Part shown: piece after piece, positions 2,323 to 47,072 of the stretch
How positions within the stretch are numbered: position 1 is the stretch's first letter
Layout: every line of letters begins with the position of its first letter
Sequence record: MN850633.1
Length of the DNA stretch: 64,000 bases
Origin: Escherichia phage allfine
Strand: one strand, 5' to 3'
Position numbers and translations under genes: made by a program
Notes under the pieces: model-generated
Seen by the model: the letters and a program-made list of their open reading frames with translations, nothing else
Told to the model about the DNA's origin: nothing
The model's database searches: none

Positions 2323-3669
2323 TTATTTGATAAGAGATTTTAGAGCATTCTGGAGAGCCAGTTTGCGTTGTTCAGCGGTGTCTTCGGAAGCATTCTTAGC
2401 TGGTTCTTTTTCTTCTTCAACCAAATCAGCTTCGCCGTCATTACCCACTTCTTCCATAGCGTTGGAGTGTTCAAGAACAGCACCAGCAGTTTCTTTCAGC
2501 TTGGTAATTTCTGATTCTTTTTCTTCCATTGCAGAAGCGTGGGATGCGATAGTTTCATTAAGTTTCTGGTTAGCACCTTCCATAGCATTCATAAACAGAA
2601 CACTCAGAGGGTTATCAAGACCAGCACCTAAAATAGTCGTTGCAGCTTCTTTTGCATCAAATCCAAAAGCTTCAGCAGAAGCAGAAATCTTATTAGTCAA
2701 ATCTGACAAAGCAGCTTCCTGTTCTTTAGCTTTCATTTGAGCAACCTGAAGACGCAAAGCTTCTAGTTCTTGCTTTTCTTGTTCAGTCATTTCTTCACCT
2801 GAATTGTTAACGTTTAAACTTACAGGAGCCTCTTCAGAACCTTGTAAGTAATTTAAGAAATCATCTTGAGACATGATTGAGTTAATTAAACCAAGTTCAA
2901 GAGCTTCCTGAGCAGAATAAACATTCGCCTCAGTATTCTTTACAGCTTCTTCAGAGAGATTACGAGATTCGGCTACAAAACCTGTAAAGGTTGCGTAGGT
3001 ATCATTAATTCTCTTTTGAAGTCTTTCTTTGCTTTCTTCTGAAAGTGCTTGGAATGGTGAACCCATACCTTTAAACTCACCAGCTTTAATGACGTTAATT
3101 GTTACGCCATTCTTTTCAAATGCCTTAGTTAATTCCTGATGAACCATGATTACACCAATAGAACCAACATCTGCATCTGGTGATGCAATAATTTCTTCAG
3201 CAGAAGATGCAAGAGCGTATGCAGCGGAACAAGCGAACTCATCTACATAAGCAATAATTTTCTTTTGGCCTCTTGAAGCCATAATGTGACGTGCTAATTC
3301 AAAGCAACCTGAAGCTTCACCACCACCAGAATCAATGTGCAGAACAATAGTCTTAATTGACTCATCTGCTAAAGCTTCGTCAAAGCCTCTACGCAAACCT
3401 TCATAAGAGCTTAAACCACCTGTACACATTGCATCAATGAATGTCATACGATGGGTTAAACCACCCATAATAGGGATAATAGCAATGTCATCTTTCACTT
3501 TTAAAAGACTTCTTGCTTCACCTTTGGGTTTATCAAAGTTTACTGCTGCTTGGACATCACCCAGCAATCTGTTATTCACATAAGTTGCTGCTGAGTGAGC
3601 TAATGATTCAGTGGCTAGTAAAGGTTGGTTGAACAATCTATCAGCAAGTCTGAAGATATTCGAACTCAT
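2323..3669 (-). CDS. prohead protease (S49/ClpP-like) fused to scaffold-like coiled-coil domain (448 aa)
   Basis: N-terminal region resembles signal-peptide-peptidase/ClpP fold (IPIMGGL...HIDSGGGEASG); C-terminal half is Glu/Lys/Ala-rich coiled coil typical of scaffolds; located between portal and capsid. Confidence 0.7.
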   Translation of the reverse strand: MSSNIFRLADRLFNQPLLATESLAHSAATYVNNRLLGDVQAAVNFDKPKGEARSLLKVKDDIAIIPIMGGLTHRMTFIDAMCTGGLSSYEGLRRGFDEALADESIKTIVLHIDSGGGEASGCFELARHIMASRGQKKIIAYVDEFACSAAYALASSAEEIIASPDADVGSIGVIMVHQELTKAFEKNGVTINVIKAGEFKGMGSPFQALSEESKERLQKRINDTYATFTGFVAESRNLSEEAVKNTEANVYSAQEALELGLINSIMSQDDFLNYLQGSEEAPVSLNVNNSGEEMTEQEKQELEALRLQVAQMKAKEQEAALSDLTNKISASAEAFGFDAKEAATTILGAGLDNPLSVLFMNAMEGANQKLNETIASHASAMEEKESEITKLKETAGAVLEHSNAMEEVGNDGEADLVEEEKEPAKNASEDTAEQRKLALQNALKSLIK

Positions 3670-8041: not shown

Positions 8042-8117
8042 TGGAGAATCCGAAGGGACTCGAACCCTTATAAACCTGTTTTGCAGACAGGCACATAGCC
8101 ATTTCTGTCACGGATTC
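8042..8117 (-). tRNA. tRNA-Cys (GCA)
   Basis: Hand fold: acceptor GAAUCCG/CGGAUUC, anticodon stem CCUGU/ACAGG with loop CUGCAAA, T-loop UUCGAGU, encoded CCA. Confidence 0.7.
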
Positions 8118-8121
8118 AAAT

Positions 8122-8214
8122 TGGAGGAAGATACCAGACTTGAACTGGTACACCGATTTCTCAGCTACTGGCAGTTTAGCAAACTGCTCCCTTACCTTTT
8201 AGGGTTAATCTTCC
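8122..8214 (-). tRNA. tRNA-Ser (GCU), type II with long variable arm
   Basis: Acceptor GGAAGAU/AUCUUCC, anticodon loop UUGCUAA, T-arm ACCAG-UUCAAGU-CUGGU, 93 nt. Confidence 0.6.
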
Positions 8215-8215
8215 A

Positions 8216-8950
8216 TTATTTCTGTAATGCGCTCTTCATTTCTGGTGTTGCAATAGTGTCAATTACACCAGTTTTACAGGCATCATCAAACCAGTCTGGT
8301 AAGATACCTGCTAAGAACCCATTGATATTCGTTTTAAGGTACTCTGCAATAAGGGCAGCTTCTTCTTCAATCATCTGCACAACTTCATCTGCATAAGCTG
8401 TAATCTTTGAGATACCTTCATTAATCTTACTGACAGCTTGGTTAGCTAAATCAGAAACAGTATCAAGACCCTTGTCAATAGCGTCTTGTAAGTCACTTAA
8501 TACATCGTTAACACTCTCTAGTGTACTGTTAATCGTATCAATAGCTTTTTGACCATATTCTGTAGCAACACCCATAATACCACTGAACGGTGTACAACCA
8601 ACTTGTTCTCCTGCTGCACCCATAACATTGGAATATCCCTTTGCTACCTGCATACGTGATGAAAACTCATCAATAGACTTTTGACCGTAGTCTGTTAGGG
8701 TCTTAGTAGTTGCTGTAGTGCTTGTAAGGCTTGTTGTAAAGCTGTTTAGAAGGACTGTTGTAAGTCCAGCAGCAACAAGTTTCTCCTGCATTGTAGGGTC
8801 TGTTACAGAACTAATAGAGCTTACAAGTGATGTAGAAGCAGCTACGGTTCCACCGAGAACTGCTGCACCAGTAATAAGTGGGTTAGAAAACCCTTTACCG
8901 GTTTTTAAGAGATTAAAAATCTCCTTACCTTGTTCTGTCATCTCTTTCAT
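8216..8950 (-). CDS. hypothetical Ser/Thr-rich protein (about 244 aa from internal Met)
   Basis: ORF 8216-9013 in track; upstream 60 nt overlaps a tRNA, so start placed at Met 22 (8950); embedded inside tRNA array. Confidence 0.45.
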   Translation of the reverse strand: MKEMTEQGKEIFNLLKTGKGFSNPLITGAAVLGGTVAASTSLVSSISSVTDPTMQEKLVAAGLTTVLLNSFTTSLTSTTATTKTLTDYGQKSIDEFSSRMQVAKGYSNVMGAAGEQVGCTPFSGIMGVATEYGQKAIDTINSTLESVNDVLSDLQDAIDKGLDTVSDLANQAVSKINEGISKITAYADEVVQMIEEEAALIAEYLKTNINGFLAGILPDWFDDACKTGVIDTIATPEMKSALQK

Positions 8951-8969
8951 TAAGCACCTTTGAAATTGG

Positions 8970-9043
8970 TAGTCCAGTGGGATTTGAACCCTCTTCTCAT
9001 GTTTTTCAGACACGCGCTTTAACCATATAAGCTACTTGGACTA
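8970..9043 (-). tRNA. tRNA-Phe (GAA), imperfect fold
   Basis: T-arm GAGGG-UUCAAAU-CCCAC, acceptor UAGUCCA/UGGACUA, anticodon stem CGUGU/ACAUG loop CUGAAAA; D-arm register ambiguous. Confidence 0.5.
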
Positions 9044-9048
9044 TAAAT

Positions 9049-9124
9049 TGGGGTGACCTACGGGATTTGAACCCGTATAGACCATGTTCACAGCATGGGT
9101 CATTACCATTTATGATAAGGCCAC
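9049..9124 (-). tRNA. tRNA-His (GUG)
   Basis: Acceptor GUGGCCU/AGGUCAC, D-stem UCAU/AUGA, anticodon stem CCAUG/CAUGG loop CUGUGAA, T-arm ACGGG-UUCAAAU-CCCGU, CCA encoded. Confidence 0.8.
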
Positions 9125-9155
9125 ATTTAAGGACTCTCGTAAGAATCCTTAGAAG

Positions 9156-9231
9156 TGGCAGCGGCATAAGGATTTGAACCTTAATAAGACAGCTTCAGAG
9201 ACTGCTGCATTGCCAGTTATGCTATACCGCT
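9156..9231 (-). tRNA. tRNA-Gln (CUG)
   Basis: Acceptor AGCGGUA/UGCCGCU, D-stem GCAU/AUGC, anticodon loop CUCUGAA, T-arm UAAGG-UUCAAAU-CCUUA. Confidence 0.7.
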
Positions 9232-9236
9232 AAATT

Positions 9237-9315
9237 TGGTACTCCATATCGGATTCGAACCGATACATAACACAGATTTTAAGTCTGGCCTCTCTGCCAA
9301 TTGGAGTAATGGAGC
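9237..9315 (-). tRNA. tRNA-Leu (UAA)?, Leu-like D-loop AAUUGGCAGAG but short variable region
   Basis: T-arm AUCGG-UUCGAAU-CCGAU, acceptor GCUCCAU/AUGGAGU, anticodon loop CUUAAAA; atypical for a type II tRNA. Confidence 0.45.
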
Positions 9316-9317
9316 AT

Positions 9318-9392
9318 TGGCGGGGGATGTTGGAATTGAACCAACTTCTTCGATTTCAAAGACCGAGGTTTTAACCTTGTAAACTAATCCCC
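9318..9392 (-). tRNA. tRNA-Gln (UUG)
   Basis: Anticodon stem UCGGU/AUCGA loop CUUUGAA, T-arm GUUGG-UUCAAUU-CCAAC; acceptor pairing imperfect. Confidence 0.55.
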
Positions 9393-9401
9393 TTTAAATC
9401 T

Positions 9402-9959
9402 TTACTTTCTCAGTGGATGAATAAAGAATGCCAACATAACTCTTTCCCTTGAGAATGCTCTTTCTTCTGGGACAACACTTTTTAGTTTCCATCCAATATA
9501 AATTCTCCAGTAAAATTGTTTACCAAAGATTTTAATTGATGGGATAAAAGCGAATAATCCCCAAGCATTCCTGTTCCACATTAGGAGATAACCAGTCTGA
9601 TTATCTTCAGGGTTAGAACTTACGTTGATATTACCTTTCCACTTAGTAACATCTTTTACATCTCTTCCTAACACATGGTAAGAGAAGTTATAAGCTTTGT
9701 TTCTCCAGAGCCATCCAACTCTTTGCATGTAGACACCTAGTTTACCAATCCATCTAATATTAGCCCATCTTTTAACGTGACCTTCATCACCATCAATTGG
9801 GTTGTCATAGGTCTCCATCCATCTGAATCCAAAAGGTAGATGTCCTTTCTTCTCACTGTAGAATGGAACTACAAAAGGTGCTAAGATAACTGCTAAGATT
9901 GCTGCAAATGGCTCTAACAAAGCTAAGAAAATCCATGAAGCATACTTCAAATATCTCAT
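9402..9959 (-). CDS. hypothetical membrane protein (185 aa)
   Basis: ORF with strongly hydrophobic N-terminus (two predicted TM helices), Trp-rich; embedded in tRNA array. Confidence 0.45.
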   Translation of the reverse strand: MRYLKYASWIFLALLEPFAAILAVILAPFVVPFYSEKKGHLPFGFRWMETYDNPIDGDEGHVKRWANIRWIGKLGVYMQRVGWLWRNKAYNFSYHVLGRDVKDVTKWKGNINVSSNPEDNQTGYLLMWNRNAWGLFAFIPSIKIFGKQFYWRIYIGWKLKSVVPEERAFSRERVMLAFFIHPLRK

Positions 9960-9978
9960 CTAAATAGCCTCTTTAAAT

Positions 9979-10054
9979 TGGCGCAGGATAAGGGATTCGA
10001 ACCCCTATTAACAGCTTCGTAGACTGTTGCTCTATCCATTTGAACTAATCCTGC
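9979..10054 (-). tRNA. tRNA-Arg (ACG)
   Basis: Acceptor GCAGGAU/AUCCUGC, D-stem GUUC/GAGC, anticodon stem ACAGU/GCUGU loop CUACGAA, T-arm AGGGG-UUCGAAU-CCCUU, CCA. Confidence 0.8.
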
Positions 10055-10059
10055 AAAAT

Positions 10060-10137
10060 TGGTGTTCCAAGACGGATTCGAACCGTCACTAGTACAAGGT
10101 TTGAGCTTGCATCCTCTGCCAATTGGGATACTGGAAC
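10060..10137 (-). tRNA. tRNA-Leu (CAA)?, Leu-like D-loop, short variable region
   Basis: Acceptor GUUCCAG/UUGGAAC, anticodon stem GCAAG/CUUGU loop CUCAAAC, T-arm GACGG-UUCGAAU-CCGUC. Confidence 0.5.
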
Positions 10138-10138
10138 A

Positions 10139-10213
10139 TGGTACTCACTAAAGGACTTGAACCTTTTTCTTCATCTTGTAAGGGTGATGTTTTACCATAT
10201 AAACTAAGCGAGT
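10139..10213 (-). tRNA. tRNA-Val (UAC)
   Basis: Acceptor ACUCGCU/AGUGAGU, D-stem GUUU/AAAC, anticodon loop CUUACAA, T-arm AAAGG-UUCAAGU-CCUUU. Confidence 0.65.
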
Positions 10214-10306
10214 ATGAAAGAGGTCTGGAGTTGTGCCGCTAACTCAACTCCGTGGAATTTGTTACGGTCTTCAGTTGACTCAAAGCGGTCTTTCACTTGA
10301 CCTCTG
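10214..10306. ncRNA. structured non-tRNA element inside tRNA array (candidate small RNA)
   Basis: Terminal 7-bp pairing AGAGGUC/GACCUCU enclosing hairpin GGAGUUG...CAACUCC; no T-arm consensus; fills gap between tRNA-Val and tRNA-Thr. Confidence 0.3.
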
Positions 10307-10309
10307 AAT

Positions 10310-10386
10310 TGGTGCTGCTCACAGGACTCGAACCTGCATTTCCATCCTTACAAGGGATGTGTAATAGCCAATTATACGAAAGCAGC
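10310..10386 (-). tRNA. tRNA-Thr (UGU)
   Basis: Acceptor GCUGCUU/GAGCAGC, anticodon stem CAUCC/GGAUG loop CUUGUAA, T-arm GCAGG-UUCGAGU-CCUGU. Confidence 0.8.
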
Positions 10387-10392
10387 ATTGTT

Positions 10393-10467
10393 TGGAGCAT
10401 CCAGAGGGAATCGAACCCTCAACCTCAGTTTGGAAGACTGTAATTTTCCCGTTTAAACTATGGATGC
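10393..10467 (-). tRNA. tRNA-Gly (UCC)
   Basis: Acceptor GCAUCCA/UGGAUGC, D-stem GUUU/AAAU, anticodon loop CUUCCAA, T-arm GAGGG-UUCGAUU-CCCUC. Confidence 0.75.
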
Positions 10468-10473
10468 ACTAAT

Positions 10474-10549
10474 TGGTGGAGAAGCAGGGAATTGAACCCT
10501 GTACTTAAGTTTGCAAAACTTATGTTTTAACCATGTAAACTACATCCCC
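10474..10549 (-). tRNA. tRNA-Ala (UGC)
   Basis: Anticodon stem UAAGU/ACUUA loop UUUGCAA; acceptor carries the G3-U70 wobble pair characteristic of tRNA-Ala; T-arm CAGGG-UUCAAUU-CCCUG. Confidence 0.8.
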
Positions 10550-10555
10550 ATTGTT

Positions 10556-10631
10556 TGGTACAGGTGGAGGGAATTGAACCCATCGTCTTACTGATTAAGA
10601 GTCAGCCGCATAACCATTTTGCTACACCTGC
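10556..10631 (-). tRNA. tRNA-Lys (CUU)
   Basis: Acceptor GCAGGUG/CACCUGU, anticodon stem GCUGA/UCAGU loop CUCUUAA; paralogous to the tRNA at 11790-11865. Confidence 0.6.
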
Positions 10632-10638
10632 ATTAATT

Positions 10639-10716
10639 TGGTAGGAGACAAGGGATTCGAACCCTCAAACATCTCGTTCTAAGCGAGATAGGTTTACCAA
10701 TTACCGTCAATCTCCC
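10639..10716 (-). tRNA. tRNA-Leu (UAG)?, atypical
   Basis: Acceptor GGGAGAU/GUCUCCU, anticodon stem UCUCG/CGAGA loop CUUAGAA, T-arm GAGGG-UUCGAAU-CCCUU; D-arm irregular. Confidence 0.5.
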
Positions 10717-10975
10717 ATTAAATCTTTTTAGAGAACTTCTAAGAACCTAAGCAACAAGGTTCCACAACAAGCTGTAATAACCTTAGAAGCCCTCTAAAAA
10801 GACCTAAAAAGGTCTTTGCATAGTCTTGTTTAATCCGGTGACTAGAACCTTTGGAGAGCTTGATATTATCTCTTCTCCGTGACACCTACTAGGTGCTTTA
10901 CTGTGCGTGTACGACAATACACTAGGGATACCAAAGCAACATCCGAATGAAGCTTGGCTTTAAATCTTATTAGGC

Positions 10976-11061
10976 GGTAAGTAAAGGAGTCGAACCCTCA
11001 CCGTATCTCTACAGTGGCAACTGTTTTCAAGACAGTTTGGCTACCATTAGCCGCTACCTAC
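10976..11061 (-). tRNA. tRNA-Ser (UGA), type II
   Basis: Anticodon stem ACUGU/ACAGU loop CUUGAAA, long variable arm, acceptor GUAGGUA/UACUUAC; boundaries approximate. Confidence 0.6.
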
Positions 11062-11075
11062 CCCTAATAAGACTT

Positions 11076-11158
11076 TGGCATGGGACGGAGGAGTTGAACC
11101 ACTTTGAAACGGTTTTGGAGGCCGTTGCTCATGCCTTAGAGTCTTAACATCGTCCCAC
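11076..11158 (-). tRNA. tRNA-like, possible tRNA-Trp (CCA), atypical 5-prime half
   Basis: Acceptor GUGGGAC/GUCCCAU with encoded CCA, anticodon-like arm ACGGC-CUCCAAA-ACCGU, about 7 extra nt in D region. Confidence 0.4.
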
Positions 11159-11301
11159 ACTATAATTCGAAGCTTACCGTATTTTCACAACACTGTAAAG
11201 CCCCTTCTCAGATTATTTACATGTTCTGGAAAACATGAGATACAGACCACCTCCTTACACGGAGACCCGATAAGGTCGTCTAAGTAATCTGCTAACTAAA
11301 T

Positions 11302-11383
11302 TGGTCGAGGCGGCAGGACTCGAACCCGCATACTCCACTTACTCGGTTAACGGCGGTTTAGAAGACCGCTGAGATACGCCCCG
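11302..11383 (-). tRNA. tRNA-like, possible tRNA-Arg (UCU), lacks canonical D-arm
   Basis: Good T-arm GCGGG-UUCGAGU-CCUGC and acceptor CGGGGCG/CGCCUCG plus CCA; anticodon arm GCGGU-CUUCUAA-ACCGC directly after acceptor; 23-nt extra segment. Confidence 0.4.
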
Positions 11384-11631
11384 TAATTATCTTTAAAGAC
11401 TCTCTTAGAAAGCCCTTAAAGATGCCCACCTTATTAATCATACCGTGGGCTAGTACGCCAAATTCTTTGATGAGGGATTGGAAGACCTCACTGGTGTTTA
11501 GCCTATCAAGCTACTGCCAGAAAAACATTGTCGTTTGCATTTATTTTAAATTTGCAAAATAGACGCTACGCAACGAAAACTAAGGTTACTATAAAGTAGT
11601 CACATCTCAATGTCAACAACTTTATTGAAAT

Positions 11632-11707
11632 TGGTACTGGTAGGTGGAATCGAACCACCGATGTTCCCTTATCAGGGGAGTGTTATAACCTTCTTAACTA
11701 TACCAGC
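11632..11707 (-). tRNA. tRNA-Ile (GAU)
   Basis: Acceptor GCUGGUA/UACCAGU, D-stem GUUA/UAAC, anticodon loop CUGAUAA, T-arm GGUGG-UUCGAUU-CCACC. Confidence 0.75.
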
Positions 11708-11708
11708 T

Positions 11709-11785
11709 TGGAGGTTCAGATGGGAATCGAACCCACATTCATAGGGCTTATGAGACCCTTGCATTACCTTATCTGCGACTGAACC
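11709..11785 (-). tRNA. tRNA-Met (CAU), elongator-type acceptor
   Basis: Acceptor GGUUCAG/CUGAACC, anticodon stem AGGGU/GCCCU loop CUCAUAA, T-arm GUGGG-UUCGAUU-CCCAU. Confidence 0.75.
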
Positions 11786-11789
11786 ATAT

Positions 11790-11865
11790 TGGTAGAAGTG
11801 GAGGGATTCGAACCCATCGCCTGTCAGATTAAAAGTCTGCCGCATAACCATTTTGCTACACTTCC
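11790..11865 (-). tRNA. tRNA-Lys (UUU)
   Basis: Acceptor GGAAGUG/CACUUCU, anticodon loop CUUUUAA, D region identical to tRNA-Lys(CUU) paralog. Confidence 0.65.
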
Positions 11866-12122
11866 ATTAAATTACCTTTGTAGATAAGCTACCCAGACTT
11901 GCTTAAGGTCTGTAGCGATGTGCCTTGTTGGGTTTAAATCTAGAATTTACCCTTTCACCCTTTGTGGTCGCATACTCACAGGTAAGCTTAATAACTTATC
12001 TACAAAGATAATTACCAGACCGTTGTTTATCATCTTAAGTGCTACCATTACACCAACTCGACATCTGCCGAGTGAAGGAATCGAACCTTCGCCTTTTCTT
12101 TACCGGAGAAATAGATTGTTTA

Positions 12123-12152
12123 AGTTTTGCTGTAAACGGTCTTCTGTAAATT
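12123..12152. repeat. repeat motif TTGCTGTAA-N2-GGTCTTCTGTAAA, copy 1 of 4 in tRNA array
   Basis: Near-identical copies at about 12205-12232, 12596-12629 and 12763-12790; CCAGACC partner forms long-range inverted repeat with GGTCTTCTG. Confidence 0.5.
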
Positions 12153-12204
12153 TGTTGAGCCAGACCAAGTTTTAAATTTTCAAAATTAAATTGGCTTGAA
12201 ATTT

Positions 12205-12232
12205 CATACATTCTTGCTGTATTTGGTCTTCT
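12205..12232. repeat. repeat motif copy 2 (TTGCTGTATTTGGTCTTCTG)
   Basis: Shares core with copies at 12123, 12596, 12763; upstream partner CCAGACCAAG at about 12163. Confidence 0.45.
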
Positions 12233-12294
12233 GCTCCTTTAAAGAATACTCGTAAGAACTCTTTAAGGGAGGGGCTAAATAGCCCTCTCAAAAT

Positions 12295-12371
12295 TGGCGG
12301 CTACGATGAGACTTGAACTCACATCATCTCCCGTGACAGGGGAGTATTTTCTCCAGTTAAACTACATAGCC
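12295..12371 (-). tRNA. tRNA-Asp (GUC)
   Basis: Acceptor GGCUAUG/CGUAGCC, anticodon stem CUCCC/GGGAG loop CUGUCAC, T-arm GUGAG-UUCAAGU-CUCAU, CCA encoded. Confidence 0.85.
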
Positions 12372-12376
12372 TTTAT

Positions 12377-12464
12377 TGGTGTGCCGTGTAGGAGTCGAAC
12401 CTACCGAGTCTCAATGACAAGGGATTTACAGTCCCCACCGCTACCATCTACGGGATAACGACAC
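12377..12464 (-). tRNA. tRNA-Tyr (GUA), type II
   Basis: Acceptor GUGUCGU/ACGGCAC, anticodon stem GGGGA/UCCCU loop CUGUAAA, long variable arm, T-arm GUAGG-UUCGACU-CCUAC. Confidence 0.75.
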
Positions 12465-12476
12465 ATTTAAATTTTG

Positions 12477-12550
12477 CGGTTAGTCAGGGATTCGAACCCT
12501 GTGCCATTCGCTTAACAGGCGACCGCACATACCTTATGTGCTTCCTAACC
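12477..12550 (-). tRNA. tRNA-Asn (GUU)
   Basis: D-stem GCAC/GUGC, anticodon loop CUGUUAA, T-arm CAGGG-UUCGAAU-CCCUG; CCA not encoded. Confidence 0.75.
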
Positions 12551-12595
12551 TTAATACATTGCCAGACCGTGTTTTTCTTTTATCCGCAAAAAGTA

Positions 12596-12629
12596 GTTTG
12601 TTGCTGAATACGGTCTTCTGTAAATTTGG
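12596..12629. repeat. repeat motif copy 3 (TTGTTGCTGAATACGGTCTTCTGTAAATTTGG) with upstream CCAGACCG partner at about 12571
   Basis: Same core as 12123 and 12763 copies. Confidence 0.5.
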
Positions 12630-12703
12630 AGGCGGGTGCAGGAGTCGAACCTGCCGATACCATGCTAATGAGACATGTGAGACGCCCTTTCTCTATACCC
12701 GCA
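12627..12703 (-). tRNA. tRNA-Met or Ile2 (CAU)
   Basis: Anticodon stem CAUGU/GCAUG loop CUCAUUA, D-stem GAGA/UCUC, T-arm GCAGG-UUCGACU-CCUGC; position 1-72 mismatch in one register. Confidence 0.6.
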
Positions 12704-12762
12704 ATTCTTAATGACCAGACCAAATATCTTCTTTGTCCGATTTCGTGTCAGATGAGTAGATT

Positions 12763-12790
12763 AAGTTTGCTGTAATTGGTCTTCTGTCAA
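12763..12790. repeat. repeat motif copy 4 (TTGCTGTAATTGGTCTTCTGTCAAAA) with upstream CCAGACCAA partner at about 12714
   Basis: Same core as other copies; on minus strand reads TTGACAGAAGACC. Confidence 0.5.
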
Positions 12791-12793
12791 AAC

Positions 12794-12871
12794 TGGCGTT
12801 CCAGAAGGGATTTGAACCCTCAAATATCCACTTTGAAAGAGTGGTGACTTTACCATTTTGTCTACTGGAAC
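12794..12871 (-). tRNA. tRNA-Glu (UUC)
   Basis: Acceptor GUUCCAG/CUGGAAC, anticodon stem CCACU/AGUGG loop CUUUCAA, T-arm GAGGG-UUCAAAU-CCCUU, CCA. Confidence 0.8.
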
Positions 12872-12878
12872 ATTAATT

Positions 12879-12955
12879 TGGTCTCTGTTGGAGGACTTGA
12901 ACCTCCGGCCTTACCGCCCCAAACGGAACGCTCTACCAAGCTGAGCTAAACAGAG
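12879..12955 (-). tRNA. tRNA-Pro (UGG)
   Basis: Acceptor CUCUGUU/AACAGAG with C1-G72 typical of bacterial tRNA-Pro, D-stem GCUC/GAGC, anticodon loop UUUGGGG, T-arm GGAGG-UUCAAGU-CCUCC. Confidence 0.8.
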
Positions 12956-43800: not shown

Positions 43801-44174
43801 ATAGTTTTACCATTATCACATGTGTAAAGATACTCTACAGAAGTTTGTGGTACAAGTATAGTGGTGCTACCACTAAGTACACTCACAAAATGAGTAACCT
43901 CACGATGCTGATGAGTTTTTACACAATTGTTTGCCTCCATCCATATCACAGTTTTGTATGAATAGAACACTGCCAAGACACAAAGGACAATAACCCCAAC
44001 TATCATGGCAAACTCAGGCAAAAAATCTGACTGTATGATGTCTCTAAATCGCATTACTCCAAGAATAAATAAGATTATCAGACATACAATCCCACAAACT
44101 GCTACATAAAGCCACAAGTCCATAATGTAACTCCAAATAAAAAGGTGATGTAAGCCTATCAAGACCCACACCAC
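43788..44174 (-). CDS. hypothetical membrane protein (128 aa)
   Basis: Multiple hydrophobic helices. Confidence 0.45.
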   Translation of the reverse strand: MVWVLIGLHHLFIWSYIMDLWLYVAVCGIVCLIILFILGVMRFRDIIQSDFLPEFAMIVGVIVLCVLAVFYSYKTVIWMEANNCVKTHQHREVTHFVSVLSGSTTILVPQTSVEYLYTCDNGKTIWWN

Positions 44175-44185
44175 CTTGTCAAGTT

Positions 44186-45133
44186 TTACATAGAGACTCT
44201 ATCACGAATCTCAGCGATTTTTGCATCATTCATTCGAGACTGACCTTTAATTTTTGTGAATGACAAGTACCCGCACACCCTGTTAATCACAGAAATATCA
44301 TGTGAATGACAAACCTCACATTCTTCAACATCAGCCTTTGGTCTGTCACCACAATGTTCACAGATTGCTAAGTCAAAGTTAAGTCCCTGATAGAAACCTT
44401 TCAACATCCCTCTTGTAATACAACTCTTAAGTGCTGATAAGTTTTCTGGATTAGCTACCCTTACATACTGGATTCTGCCGCCTCTACAGATATGGAAGAA
44501 GGGTTCTTCTAAGTCCTGCTTCTCAAATGGTGTAATATCTGCTGCAACATTCATATGGAAACTATTTGTAAAGTATTCTTTATCAGAAACACCTTTGATA
44601 ACGCCAAACATATCTCTGAACTGTTTTAACTGAGTTCCACAAAGTGATTCTGCTGGAGTGCCATATACCGCATACAAGAAGCCATCTTCGTTCTTAAACT
44701 CTTCAGTTTTCATGTTAATGTATGCCAGAACATCGTATGTAAAACTACAGCTTCCAACTTCATGAAGCCGTTTACCTTCAGCAAGAACAGATAGCTCATC
44801 AAGCGCAGTAACCCCAAAAGAAGCTGTGAAGGACTTCACAATATCCCAACCAACCTTGTCAGTAGGCTTCTTAGTTCCTTTGTACAGACCACCTTGTGTA
44901 AATGCAAGAGGGTTAGAACTTGCTGGCATATTGGCAATCATTTCATAGCGTTTCTTGTGGAAACTACGAATCATCTCTAGGTACTTATCAAGCTCTTTCC
45001 AGAAATCTAAACCATTCTCTTTAGAATACTGGTAAATCATTGGTAAGTTCAAAGATACAGCACCAATGTTAGCACGACCAACATAGAACTCTTCCCCATT
45101 ATCGTTAAGATATGGTGATAAGAACGCTCTACA
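44186..45133 (-). CDS. nrdD: anaerobic ribonucleoside-triphosphate reductase, exon 2 (C-terminal part)
   Basis: Begins CRAFLSPYL directly after predicted 3-prime splice site; C-terminal CEHCG...CEVC zinc site and glycyl-radical motif RVCGYL. Confidence 0.8.
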   Translation of the reverse strand, partial: CRAFLSPYLNDNGEEFYVGRANIGAVSLNLPMIYQYSKENGLDFWKELDKYLEMIRSFHKKRYEMIANMPASSNPLAFTQGGLYKGTKKPTDKVGWDIVKSFTASFGVTALDELSVLAEGKRLHEVGSCSFTYDVLAYINMKTEEFKNEDGFLYAVYGTPAESLCGTQLKQFRDMFGVIKGVSDKEYFTNSFHMNVAADITPFEKQDLEEPFFHICRGGRIQYVRVANPENLSALKSCITRGMLKGFYQGLNFDLAICEHCGDRPKADVEECEVCHSHDISVINRVCGYLSFTKIKGQSRMNDAKIAEIRDRVSM

Positions 45134-45875
45134 CTTGTTGTTCAGGTAAGTTCGCTAAGCTTACCCCGCTTTATTCAAGCTGCTTACTGTCGCCAGTAAG
45201 TCCAGACTATATCTTCTACTTATTTCTAAGTAGCGTACCATTTCGAGTCGCTTGACCCTACACCGCTACATTCATCACGGTTAGTCGTTCGGCATTTAGA
45301 TGTATTCAAACTCATATTCGAAGTTATTATGCTCTTTTACACCCTTCAATATTGAAGAGATGGTCTTGCGATTGTGTCCAAGTATATTGGATAACTCTCG
45401 TATTGACTTAGTAACAATAACTTCCTTTGTCACTTTGTGTGTGGCTTTCACGGCATATGAACGCTTGTGGAACTTGTAACATCCGTTCTCATAACCCTCT
45501 TTAGCATTCTCAGAATGAGTACCCCATTCTAAGTTAGATGCGTGGTTATTTAGTTTGTTATCGTCCTTATGTTTTACAATTGGAAGATTATTCGGGTTAG
45601 GTACATATTTCTCAGCAACTAACCTGTGGACATACATGTCACGATTCTTCTTACCGTAAAACCTCACTTTCATATACCCAGTGTTGGATTTCCACTGCGT
45701 AAGCTCTACACCATTTTCCCTAAAGACTTTTCCATCTTCAGTGACGTGATAGTTTGGCATGTAAGACTCCTATGTTGTATAGTTTCTTACATCGTACATC
45801 ATTTAGCACAGGATTGTCTACATCTGTAGAGTTTCCCTGTTTAGGCACGTTTTAGATGAGCTATAGAGCTTGTTA
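45134..45875 (-). mobile_element. putative group I intron in nrdD carrying HNH homing endonuclease ORF
   Basis: Exon 1 ends ...ISPMG then stop; exon 2 resumes CRAFLS in frame, reconstituting conserved PMGCR motif; upstream exon ends in U, intron ends in G; P7-like pairing CGACUAA / UAUAGUC. Confidence 0.65.
45296..45760 (-). CDS. HNH homing endonuclease (intron-encoded, 154 aa)
   Basis: HNH core HRLVAEKYVPNPNNLPIVKHKDDNKLNNHASNLEWGTHSEN; own AGGAG RBS. Confidence 0.8.
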   Translation of the reverse strand: MPNYHVTEDGKVFRENGVELTQWKSNTGYMKVRFYGKKNRDMYVHRLVAEKYVPNPNNLPIVKHKDDNKLNNHASNLEWGTHSENAKEGYENGCYKFHKRSYAVKATHKVTKEVIVTKSIRELSNILGHNRKTISSILKGVKEHNNFEYEFEYI

Positions 45876-47072
45876 ACCCATCGGTGAAATTACCTTGCCA
45901 GAACGCTCAAAAGCTTCTGCTACAGCACCATGACCAGATACACTTAAGAAATCTGGATACATTGCTTTAGAGCAGCACTCAATAGCTTTACTGTACAGGT
46001 GGCCTTGACAGATATTCTCATTATGTCTCTTCTGGTCATAAATATAAACCAGTTTAGGGAATACAACAGGCTTCTTGCTCTTACCTTGTCCATTCATACG
46101 AACATCTAGGAGAGTACTTGCAATTATATATTGCAGTCGGTTATCTTCATTGGACATATCTGAGTCAAGTAACCCGAATGTCAAAGTTGTGAATGCAAAA
46201 TCCCCACGACTACAAGGTACAGTATTTAGTTTCATTTCAAGTGACTGGAAACCTTGAGTTAGCTCAATCTGTAGCTGCTCCATGACATAATTGTGGTAAT
46301 GCTCTTTAGGAATACCATAAGATGCTGCTTTCTCAGCATGATAGCGTAGAGACTTCTTAGCATACGGTACAAGTACCTTATCAATCTCTGCTAAAGTAAA
46401 GCCACCAAATTGCTGTGCAGTTGCTGAAAGAACTACATCGCCAATAACCTGTAATGCTGACAGTACAGACTTCGGTTCACAATATTCAATGCCAGACATT
46501 TCAAAGCCACCTTTCAGCACTTTACCAATGTCAAACAGGCAACAGTTGATACCACCAAAAATTAGGTCTCTTAAATCATGGATATAGATAAACCCTTTTT
46601 CAATGGCTTCAAGTTCCTCTGGTGTTAAATGGTACTGCTTAAAGATTTCTTTAGTCAGGTAACCACGAATAATTGAACCTTTTGTAGAAATTAAACTGCT
46701 GTCAAAGTTAGCATTCTCCCTGTCACCTAAGAAGAGTGTATCTTTGGTCTTCTGGTAAAGTTCATCCCAATTTTGAGCAACCTCTTTACGGTAATTTCTA
46801 TATGTTGAGTAAGACTCATAAATCTCGTGATTGACTTCTGCCAAAGCACCCTCAACAATACTGTGAATATCATTTACAGAAATTAGCAAATTATTCTGTT
46901 TAGTAGATTTTACCAGAATCCTCATAAATGCTGACTCAAGAGCTTGGGTAACATCTGGTGGGAGTTCTTTATATCCAACCCTATTAGCTGACTTTGTGAC
47001 TGCTGCTAAAACTTTTTTGATATCAGGTTCTTCGAGTGAGCCATTCTTTTTAATAATCTGTACTTTGTTCAT
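45876..47072 (-). CDS. nrdD: anaerobic ribonucleoside-triphosphate reductase, exon 1 (N-terminal part)
   Basis: N-terminal ATP-cone-like start MNKVQIIKKNGSLEEPDIKKV; ends SPMG at predicted 5-prime splice site. Confidence 0.8.

Follow-up and report, generated by a model that had tools for sequence, protein, structure and literature searches.

A group IA2 intron with an HNH endonuclease gene in nrdD of Escherichia phage allfine: predicted splicing and probable mobility among Felix O1-like phages

In Escherichia phage allfine, nrdD occurs in two pieces that are separated by an insert with an open reading frame (ORF) of its own. The question is whether this is a gene that was broken into two, a gene with an insertion that is removed from the protein, or a gene with an intron that is removed from the mRNA. 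The DNA analyzed is a stretch of 64,000 nucleotides (sequence record MN850633.1, one strand), which is called the window in the following, and all coordinates refer to it unless stated otherwise. The window stems from a Felixounavirus, i.e., a Felix O1-like phage. The gene nrdD is located on the minus strand, and so are all features of the window that are described here. The neighbors around the insert on this strand are nrdB, a glutaredoxin gene, a gene for a small membrane protein, nrdD itself and nrdG. Many Felix O1-like myoviruses, e.g., the Salmonella phages pSJ21, Meda and Mushroom, have an nrdD region with 94-96.5% identity to that of the window. Two further features of the minus strand were seen. 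Directly after the nrdD stop codon there is a strong terminator-like hairpin of 16 pairs that is followed by a T-run (44142-44177), and wV8, Meda and Mordin have annotated terminators that match it. In addition, 24 tRNA matches are densely clustered at positions 8045-12955, which is typical for Felix O1-like phages; the tRNA match at 10976-11062 also had a weak tRNA-Sec score, which was below the threshold.

The first part of nrdD, exon 1 (45876..47072, minus strand), has 399 codons and encodes an ATP-cone and the N-terminal half of the NRDD domain. The Pfam search yielded E-values of 4e-12 for the ATP-cone and 4e-41 for NRDD, the latter covering profile positions 1-250. The last codons of exon 1 are ATT TCA CCG ATG GGT (...SPMG), and the stop codon TAA follows at 45875..45873. 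The second part, exon 2 (44186..45133, minus strand), has 315 codons and a stop codon that ends at 44186. It encodes the glycyl-radical domain, and the Pfam matches were to NRDD (1e-63, profile positions 264-560) and to Gly_radical. Its first codon encodes Cys, and from 45133 downward the sequence is TGT AGA GCG TTC TTA TCA, which is translated into CRAFLS. A first-pass annotation, made by a model from the letters and a list of ORFs, had stated that the N-terminal ORF ends at SPMG and that the C-terminal ORF resumes at CRAFLS. This was found to be accurate (47072..45876, then TAA; CRAFLS from 45133), and the strand, which had not been stated, is the minus strand.

In silico splicing of the two exons resulted in a single ORF of 714 amino acids, i.e., a gene of 2145 nt, with ...CCGAUGGGU|UGUAGAGCG as the predicted ligated exon junction. 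An alignment revealed that exon 1 and exon 2 are collinear with intronless nrdD. The continuous nrdD genes of wV8, finno and FO1a, which belong to the same genus, also have 2145 nt, the spliced gene of the window is 93-96% identical to them, and their SPMGCRAFLS motif is unbroken. The empty site in the nrdD gene of wV8 reads ...CCGATGGGT|TGCAGAGCC. As had been claimed, the excision of exactly 742 nt therefore restores the conserved motif. The comparison with uninterrupted homologues, which had been proposed as a check, showed that nrdD is one continuous gene in most relatives, and thus the two ORFs are not naturally separate genes.

In an alignment with the NrdD protein of phage T4 (1H78), the junction corresponds to Gly289|Cys290 (...SPMG289-C290-RSFLS), and Cys290 of T4 NrdD is the proposed thiyl-radical residue. 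The insertion is in phase 0, between the Gly and the Cys codon of the conserved SPMG|CR motif and directly before the codon for the catalytic cysteine. A position of this kind calls to mind an intein, or another insertion at the protein level that is removed after translation, because phage ribonucleotide reductase genes often have inteins at their catalytic sites (PMC3653736). However, the final codon of exon 1 is directly followed by an in-frame TAA, the HNH ORF has its own ribosome binding site and start codon and is fused to neither exon, and no intein domains were found in the Pfam search. An intein is therefore refuted by the sequence.

The insert itself (45134..45875, minus strand) has the boundaries of a group I intron. 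Its 742 nt start with UAA, which is the in-frame stop codon for exon 1, and end with a G at 45134, and the last base of exon 1 is a T (U in the RNA). The claim that the boundaries obey the group I rules was confirmed, and in addition a single uninterrupted stretch of the intron, the internal guide sequence (45855..45868, CUCUAUA|GCUCAUC), can form both P1 and P10; in this guide the P10 part is directly 5' of the P1 part. In P1, GCUCAUC of the guide (45855..45861) is paired with GAUGGGU, the final seven nucleotides of exon 1 (45876..45882), resulting in 7 bp with a U·G at the splice site. In P10, CUCUAUA of the guide (45862..45868) is paired with UGUAGAG, the first seven nucleotides of exon 2, again resulting in 7 bp. 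The U·G at the splice-site column is kept in eight of ten related introns, and the outer pair of P1 covaries (GC, UG, CG and AU). P10 covaries with exon 2, i.e., the start of exon 2 and the guide are UGCCGAUC and GAUUGGCA in Vibrio phage F96, compared with UGUAGAG and CUCUAUA in the window.

According to the structural model, the insert has the full fold of a group IA2 intron. Subgroup IA2 is the T4 td/nrdB/sunY type in the classification of Michel and Westhof, which has the extra helices P7.1/P7.2 between P7 and P3' as well as the extensions P9.1/P9.2. The intron was placed in this subgroup because P7.1/P7.2 are present and because its DNA matches the T4 td intron with an identity of about 71%. 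The 5' half of the ribozyme core (45795..45849) contains the 5' strand of P3 (45844..45849), P4 (45835..45840 with 45808..45813), the P5 hairpin (45817..45830), the 5' strand of P6 (45806..45807) and the 5' strand of P6a (45795..45800). The 3' half (45134..45304) contains P6a', P6', P7, P7.1 (ACCG/CGGU), P7.2, P3' (45234..45239), P8 with a GAAA loop (45216..45233), J8/7 (GAAGAUA), P9 with a GCGA loop (45183..45200), P9.1, P9.2 (45144..45166) and the terminal G. The P7-like pairing that had been noticed in the 3' portion corresponds to P7, which is formed by GACUA (45282..45286) and UAGUC (45205..45209). The exact 24-nt string of the P7/P7.1 region, GACTAACCGTGATGAATGTAGCGG, recurs in a second intron subfamily, which was found in virus contigs and in Firmicutes genomes, and some of its members are richer in GC. 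In three Firmicutes copies of this subfamily the downstream translation presumably resembles a RecT-type recombinase gene. A search for further td-like intron cores within the window yielded none.

Covariation was analyzed with a set of ten introns, from which the ORFs were cut out and which were aligned with MAFFT; the structure was drawn by hand from the window sequence. The set comprised the introns of the window, a second Felixounavirus allele, Vibrio phage F96, E. coli phage nieznany, 'Campylobacter phage A140', a 137-kb IMG/VR contig, the Aeromonas phages 4L372D and phiA047, and Vibrio phage S4-7, as well as the T4 td intron. The nine other introns are 62-71% identical to that of the window. 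In this alignment 95.2% of the cells pair, compared with 35-41% in controls with slid partners, a measure in which the structure drawn from the window is favored over the controls; the counts of double changes and the RNAalifold analysis are free of this bias. Changes on both sides were observed for 43 of the 71 pairs, and none of 500 shuffles reached any of the measures. Double changes were present in five of six pairs of P3, four of six pairs of P4, six of seven pairs of P8 and all four pairs of P7.1. P7 (GACUA/UAGUC) is invariant in all ten introns, J8/7 is conserved, and P7.2, P9.1 and P9.2 are present and covary. RNAalifold, which was blind to the drawn structure, recovered P3, P4, P6, P6a, P7.1, P8, P9, P9.1 and P9.2, i.e., all nested helices except for part of P5 and P7.2.

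The scan with the Rfam models, which had also been proposed as a check, led to a divided result. At the gathering threshold the scan of the whole window yielded tRNAs only and no intron match. At an E-value threshold the model Intron_gpI (RF00028) matched positions 45183..45363 with 33.1 bits and an E-value of 2e-6, and a second sub-hit was obtained at 45757..45840 (model positions 60-138). The copy of the window is thus under the gathering score, which is 50 bits. In contrast, a natural ORF-less copy of 316 nt from Salmonella phage MBP4696116, which is 99.4% identical to the window intron in the shared parts, reached 55.0 bits with an E-value of 3.5e-13 and passed. This indicates that the window copy fails to reach the threshold because its two core halves are kept apart by the 465-nt ORF. 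The single-sequence fold of the ORF-less copy showed the same helices, with z = -2.9. The initial reading of the insert as a group I intron is therefore well founded, based on the covarying core from P3 to P9.2, the Rfam E-value and the shuffling results.

These results also bear on the possibility that nrdD is a split gene without splicing, i.e., that a free-standing homing endonuclease cassette broke nrdD and that the two products assemble into an active enzyme. The annotation of most GenBank records would fit this, as they list two coding sequences for a 'ribonucleotide reductase class III large subunit' with an HNH gene in between, and the literature speaks only of a split gene that is interrupted by a homing endonuclease (PMC4837284). 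A precedent for a functional split ribonucleotide reductase is known from Aeromonas phage Aeh1, in which nrdA is split by mobE (PMC3653736). However, the 277 bases outside of the ORF make up a complete and strongly covarying group I core, which passes the Rfam threshold in the ORF-less form, and a nuclease cassette leaves unexplained that a 316-nt insert devoid of an ORF separates the exons in other phages. Furthermore, exon 2 has neither a start codon nor a ribosome binding site at the junction, its earliest mechanical start is a TTG 27 codons in, and the break is inside the catalytic finger-loop motif SPMG|C. It is therefore very improbable that nrdD is a split gene of this kind.

The ORF inside the intron (45296..45760, minus strand) is looped out of P6a and encodes an I-HmuI-like HNH protein of 154 amino acids, which is annotated here as a homing endonuclease gene. 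Its final two sense codons, UAC AUC, are the 3' strand of P6a, and the stop codon follows directly. The earlier description as an internal HNH ORF with its own ribosome binding site was correct, i.e., Pfam HNH_3 matched with an E-value of 1.3e-10 (41.2 bits, cut-off 24.8), and GGAG, which is part of AGGAG, is located at 45767..45770, six nucleotides 5' of the ATG. The structure of I-HmuI (PDB 1U3E) was matched over almost the entire length of the ORF with an E-value of 3.7e-9 (residues 3-152 of the ORF versus 12-169), and the residues of the HNH motif are conserved. PHROG 59 was matched with 1e-42, and His64, Asn76 and Asn85 are invariant in comparison with the homologue of Vibrio phage F96. 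The pN/pS ratio of the ORF is 0.06-0.25 overall and 0.06-0.08 between two Felixounavirus allele groups (pS 0.36-0.46, pN 0.02-0.03), and each of the 12 full-length copies that were examined has an intact gene. Because pN is low compared with pS and all full-length copies are intact, the sequences argue that the ORF is a maintained gene under purifying selection, with a predicted endonuclease activity.

The expression signals of the endonuclease gene were also inspected. A sigma-70 promoter scan for an internal promoter yielded nine sites, compared with 9.5 expected, i.e., no signal above chance. An 8-bp hairpin, AUGUAAGA/UCUUACAU, at about 45758-45793 (minus strand) brackets the ribosome binding site and overlaps the AUG, which recalls the translational control of T4 I-TevI, and by eye analogous pairings of the ribosome binding site seem possible in nieznany and F96. 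A T4-style translational block by this hairpin is not supported, since the fold was no better than that of shuffled sequences (z = -1.66, 14/200). Endonuclease paralogues were also sought, and within the window none were found.

Selection is informative also for a further explanation, namely that the insert is a former group I intron that no longer splices and that nrdD is a pseudogene in this phage. Such a decay would be in line with the score of the window copy under the Rfam gathering score and with the loss of the endonuclease gene in some relatives, and nrdD is probably dispensable during aerobic growth. Several observations stand against it. The non-coding parts of the intron differ between alleles at only 1-8 of 277 bases, though the synonymous divergence of the endonuclease gene reaches 0.45. 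The helices of the core are all intact, and so is the endonuclease gene in every full-length copy. Both nrdD exons are still under purifying selection in the intron-bearing lineages, with pN values of 0.009-0.033 compared with pS values of 0.17-0.32, resulting in pN/pS ratios of about 0.05-0.11. A decayed intron is thus regarded as highly unlikely.

The distribution of the intron was determined with an evenly spaced sample of 60 of the 242 related records, which was counted from the match table. In this sample 34 nrdD genes (~57%) are intronless, 16 (27%) have the 742-nt intron with the ORF, and 7 (12%) have the ORF-less intron of 316 nt. The insertion junction is identical in all of the 21 alleles that were examined. 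The identities of intron and host gene are discordant. The nrdD exons of pinkbiff and LNA6 are 91.6% and 91.2% identical to those of the window, respectively, compared with 99.2% and 99.1% for the introns, and the pS of the endonuclease gene is 0.03-0.04, compared with 0.29 for the exons. In one allele group introns with identities of 97.2-99.9% reside in genes with identities of 90.0-96.9%, and for most of this group the pS of the endonuclease gene is 0.01-0.06, compared with 0.19-0.29 for the exons. The presence/absence polymorphism and the discordance between intron and host gene point to a mobile intron that probably spreads by homing, and as a part of the overall explanation given below this is regarded as very likely.

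The ORF-less form of the intron is the result of a single in-frame deletion of 426 nt, which left the ribosome binding site, the ATG and a remnant of 12 codons (MPNNFEYEFGYI, then a stop codon). The endonuclease-less intron seems to spread, too, because the same deletion is found in three phages that have introns with 99.4% identity and exons that are only 90-94% alike. Other types of variation were also encountered at this locus. The intronless phage VpaE1 has a gene for a free-standing MobE-like homing endonuclease just downstream of nrdD (locus positions 2676-3212), and thus the nrdD region in this genus is host to more than one kind of selfish nuclease. Two relatives, vB_Si_CECAV_FGS030 and Alf5, matched the spliced-junction query abnormally, one of them in two pieces over 891 bp with a coverage of 72% and the other with exon 2 only, which hints at further rearrangements, or at an insert of another kind, at the nrdD locus.

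The exons around the insertion site were compared between 15 intron-bearing and 6 intronless alleles. At position +9 of exon 2 the 15 intron-bearing alleles all have a purine and the six intronless alleles all have a pyrimidine, and position +33 is also a fixed difference between the two classes. Position +3 is a T in all intron-bearing alleles, which completes P10. The tract in exon 2 reads TACCAT in intron-bearing and TATCTT in intronless alleles, and its length is variable; it is short in the window, where exon 2 is back to the intronless pattern from about +10 onwards. Fixed differences between the intron classes were absent from exon 1 in the 21 alleles, and the identity in the flanks of ±50 nt was not informative as a measure of co-conversion. 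The pattern in exon 2 resembles a one-sided co-conversion and is suggestive of it; as it stems from a small set of 21 related alleles that were compared without a phylogenetic correction, it could partly reflect shared ancestry.

Taken together, there is very little doubt for us that nrdD contains a mobile, self-splicing group IA2 intron of the T4 td type with an HNH homing endonuclease, in which self-splicing and cleavage are predicted properties. The boundaries, the covarying fold, the family of the ORF and the selection on it, the polymorphism and the discordance between intron and exons are direct observations, and by analogy with known systems the splicing chemistry, the endonuclease activity and the cut site would be as follows. 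The gene nrdD would be transcribed as a single pre-mRNA, and ribosomes on exon 1 would halt at the UAA that is formed by the first three bases of the intron. After folding of the intron the guide would pair with the end of exon 1 (P1, with the U·G) and with the start of exon 2 (P10). A free guanosine bound at P7 would attack the 5' splice site, the terminal G of the intron would then replace the guanosine, and the ligation of the exons would result in the mRNA for the 714-aa NrdD. During a mixed infection the endonuclease would nick or cut an intronless nrdD near the insertion site; the purifying selection on the ORF and the conversion-like tract in exon 2 are indirect signs of such an activity. 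Recombinational repair off the intron-bearing genome would then transfer the intron and a short part of exon 2 to the recipient, i.e., homing would occur.

The same xMG|CR site is occupied also outside of the genus, i.e., in nieznany (Phapecoctavirus), 'Campylobacter phage A140' (Vequintavirus), Vibrio phage F96, the 137-kb IMG/VR contig and an Eubacteriales MAG. These same-site introns have a homologous core with 64-71% identity, and most of them have a homologous HNH ORF, with an amino acid identity of 41% in the case of F96. They differ from the window intron in that several have a shorter P10 and that two phages carry a second intron in nrdD; they are uncharacterized and have been annotated as split genes. 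In Vibrio phage F96 (locus positions 725-1883 and 2388-3206) and in the 137-kb IMG/VR contig nrdD is interrupted twice by group I introns. Both introns of F96 have an HNH ORF of their own, and only the second intron is at the xMG|CR site. The intron of the Eubacteriales MAG JBGVLZ010000048.1 has an HNH-like ORF upstream, and its end reads ...GAACATAAATG|TGCAGAAGTTTCTTATCT (CRSFLS), which is the same site of nrdD on a Firmicutes-associated contig.

A wider reading would be that a single intron-endonuclease lineage has specialized on the boundary before the catalytic cysteine of NrdD and has moved between unrelated groups of phages, i.e., Felixounavirus, Phapecoctavirus, Vequintavirus, a Vibrio phage and the Firmicutes-associated contig. 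In the same reading, Felixounavirus would hold all three stages of the homing cycle, namely empty sites, endonuclease-bearing introns, and introns from which the endonuclease was cleanly lost in frame. The endonuclease would be an I-HmuI-like enzyme that has not been described so far, and its conversion tracts would be apparent only in exon 2. The chances that all parts of this reading hold jointly are put at about even.

Parts of this picture had been noticed before. The genome paper on Felix O1 reported the absence of introns (PMC3185647), which agrees with the empty site in Felix O1. For some Felix O1-like phages nrdD was described as 'split' by a homing endonuclease gene, without calling an intron (PMC4837284), and an earlier survey of Salmonella phages noted only that conserved genes of such phages, or the spaces between them, receive insertions of homing endonuclease genes (PMC3728262). 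A paper from 2023 listed 'two introns' among the results of an ncRNA scan of phage SPJ41 but gave no detail (PMC9951933); SPJ41 carries the ORF-less copy of the intron. In the GenBank record of Meda nrdD is annotated as a two-part join. The search of a literature library yielded neither a paper that links Felixounavirus with a group I intron nor a paper that characterizes this same-site lineage as a group I intron.

The intron is typical of the mobile group I introns of phages, a very well-known kind of element, and it does not change the general knowledge about group I introns. It is of importance for annotation: most of the related records examined list two truncated genes for the large subunit of a class III ribonucleotide reductase and a stray HNH gene, while the correct product would be one NrdD protein of 714 amino acids, translated from an mRNA that is predicted to be spliced. 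It is also a well-supported case for the rule that phage introns are found at the most conserved catalytic codons of genes for nucleotide metabolism. In addition, the phages, which are easy to grow and to cross, form a natural series in which the site is empty, occupied, or occupied by an intron devoid of the endonuclease, and this series is usable for the study of homing by an HNH enzyme that is probably a nicking enzyme.

Several known systems are similar to the intron described here. The introns in nrdE of Staphylococcus phage Twort and the intron with I-TevIII in nrdB of phage RB3 are also group I introns in phage ribonucleotide reductase genes near conserved catalytic residues (PMC3653736, PMC2988022). 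Some of them have HNH endonucleases, but the class of the reductase and the genes differ, and the DNA search with the window intron yielded no sequence match to them. The closest protein with a solved structure is I-HmuI (PDB 1U3E), which is likewise encoded in a phage group I intron, namely in the DNA polymerase gene of Bacillus phage SPO1. It differs in the host phage, the target gene and the intron. Enzymes of the I-HmuI type, including I-HmuI itself, were reported to nick one strand (PMC2988022), and the protein of the window may do so as well.

The intron in nrdD (sunY) of phage T4, which encodes I-TevII, has the same host gene and the same intron class and is also mobile (PMC2988022). 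However, it is located at about codon 180 of T4 NrdD and not at Gly289|Cys290, and its endonuclease is of the GIY-YIG type. Identity of the two introns was rejected based on the different site and on the DNA similarity to T4 td; the T4 nrdD intron was absent among the DNA matches. The closest characterized relative at the RNA level is the intron in td of T4 (IA2, with I-TevI), with an identity of 62% in the alignment from which the ORFs were cut out and of about 71% in the 3' half. Both introns have the helices P3 to P9.2 including P7.1/P7.2, an ORF that is looped out of P6a, UAA as the first bases and a host gene for nucleotide metabolism. The T4 intron differs in that its host gene is td, in that it has a P2 hairpin, which the window intron lacks, and in that its endonuclease, I-TevI, belongs to the GIY-YIG family and not to the HNH family.
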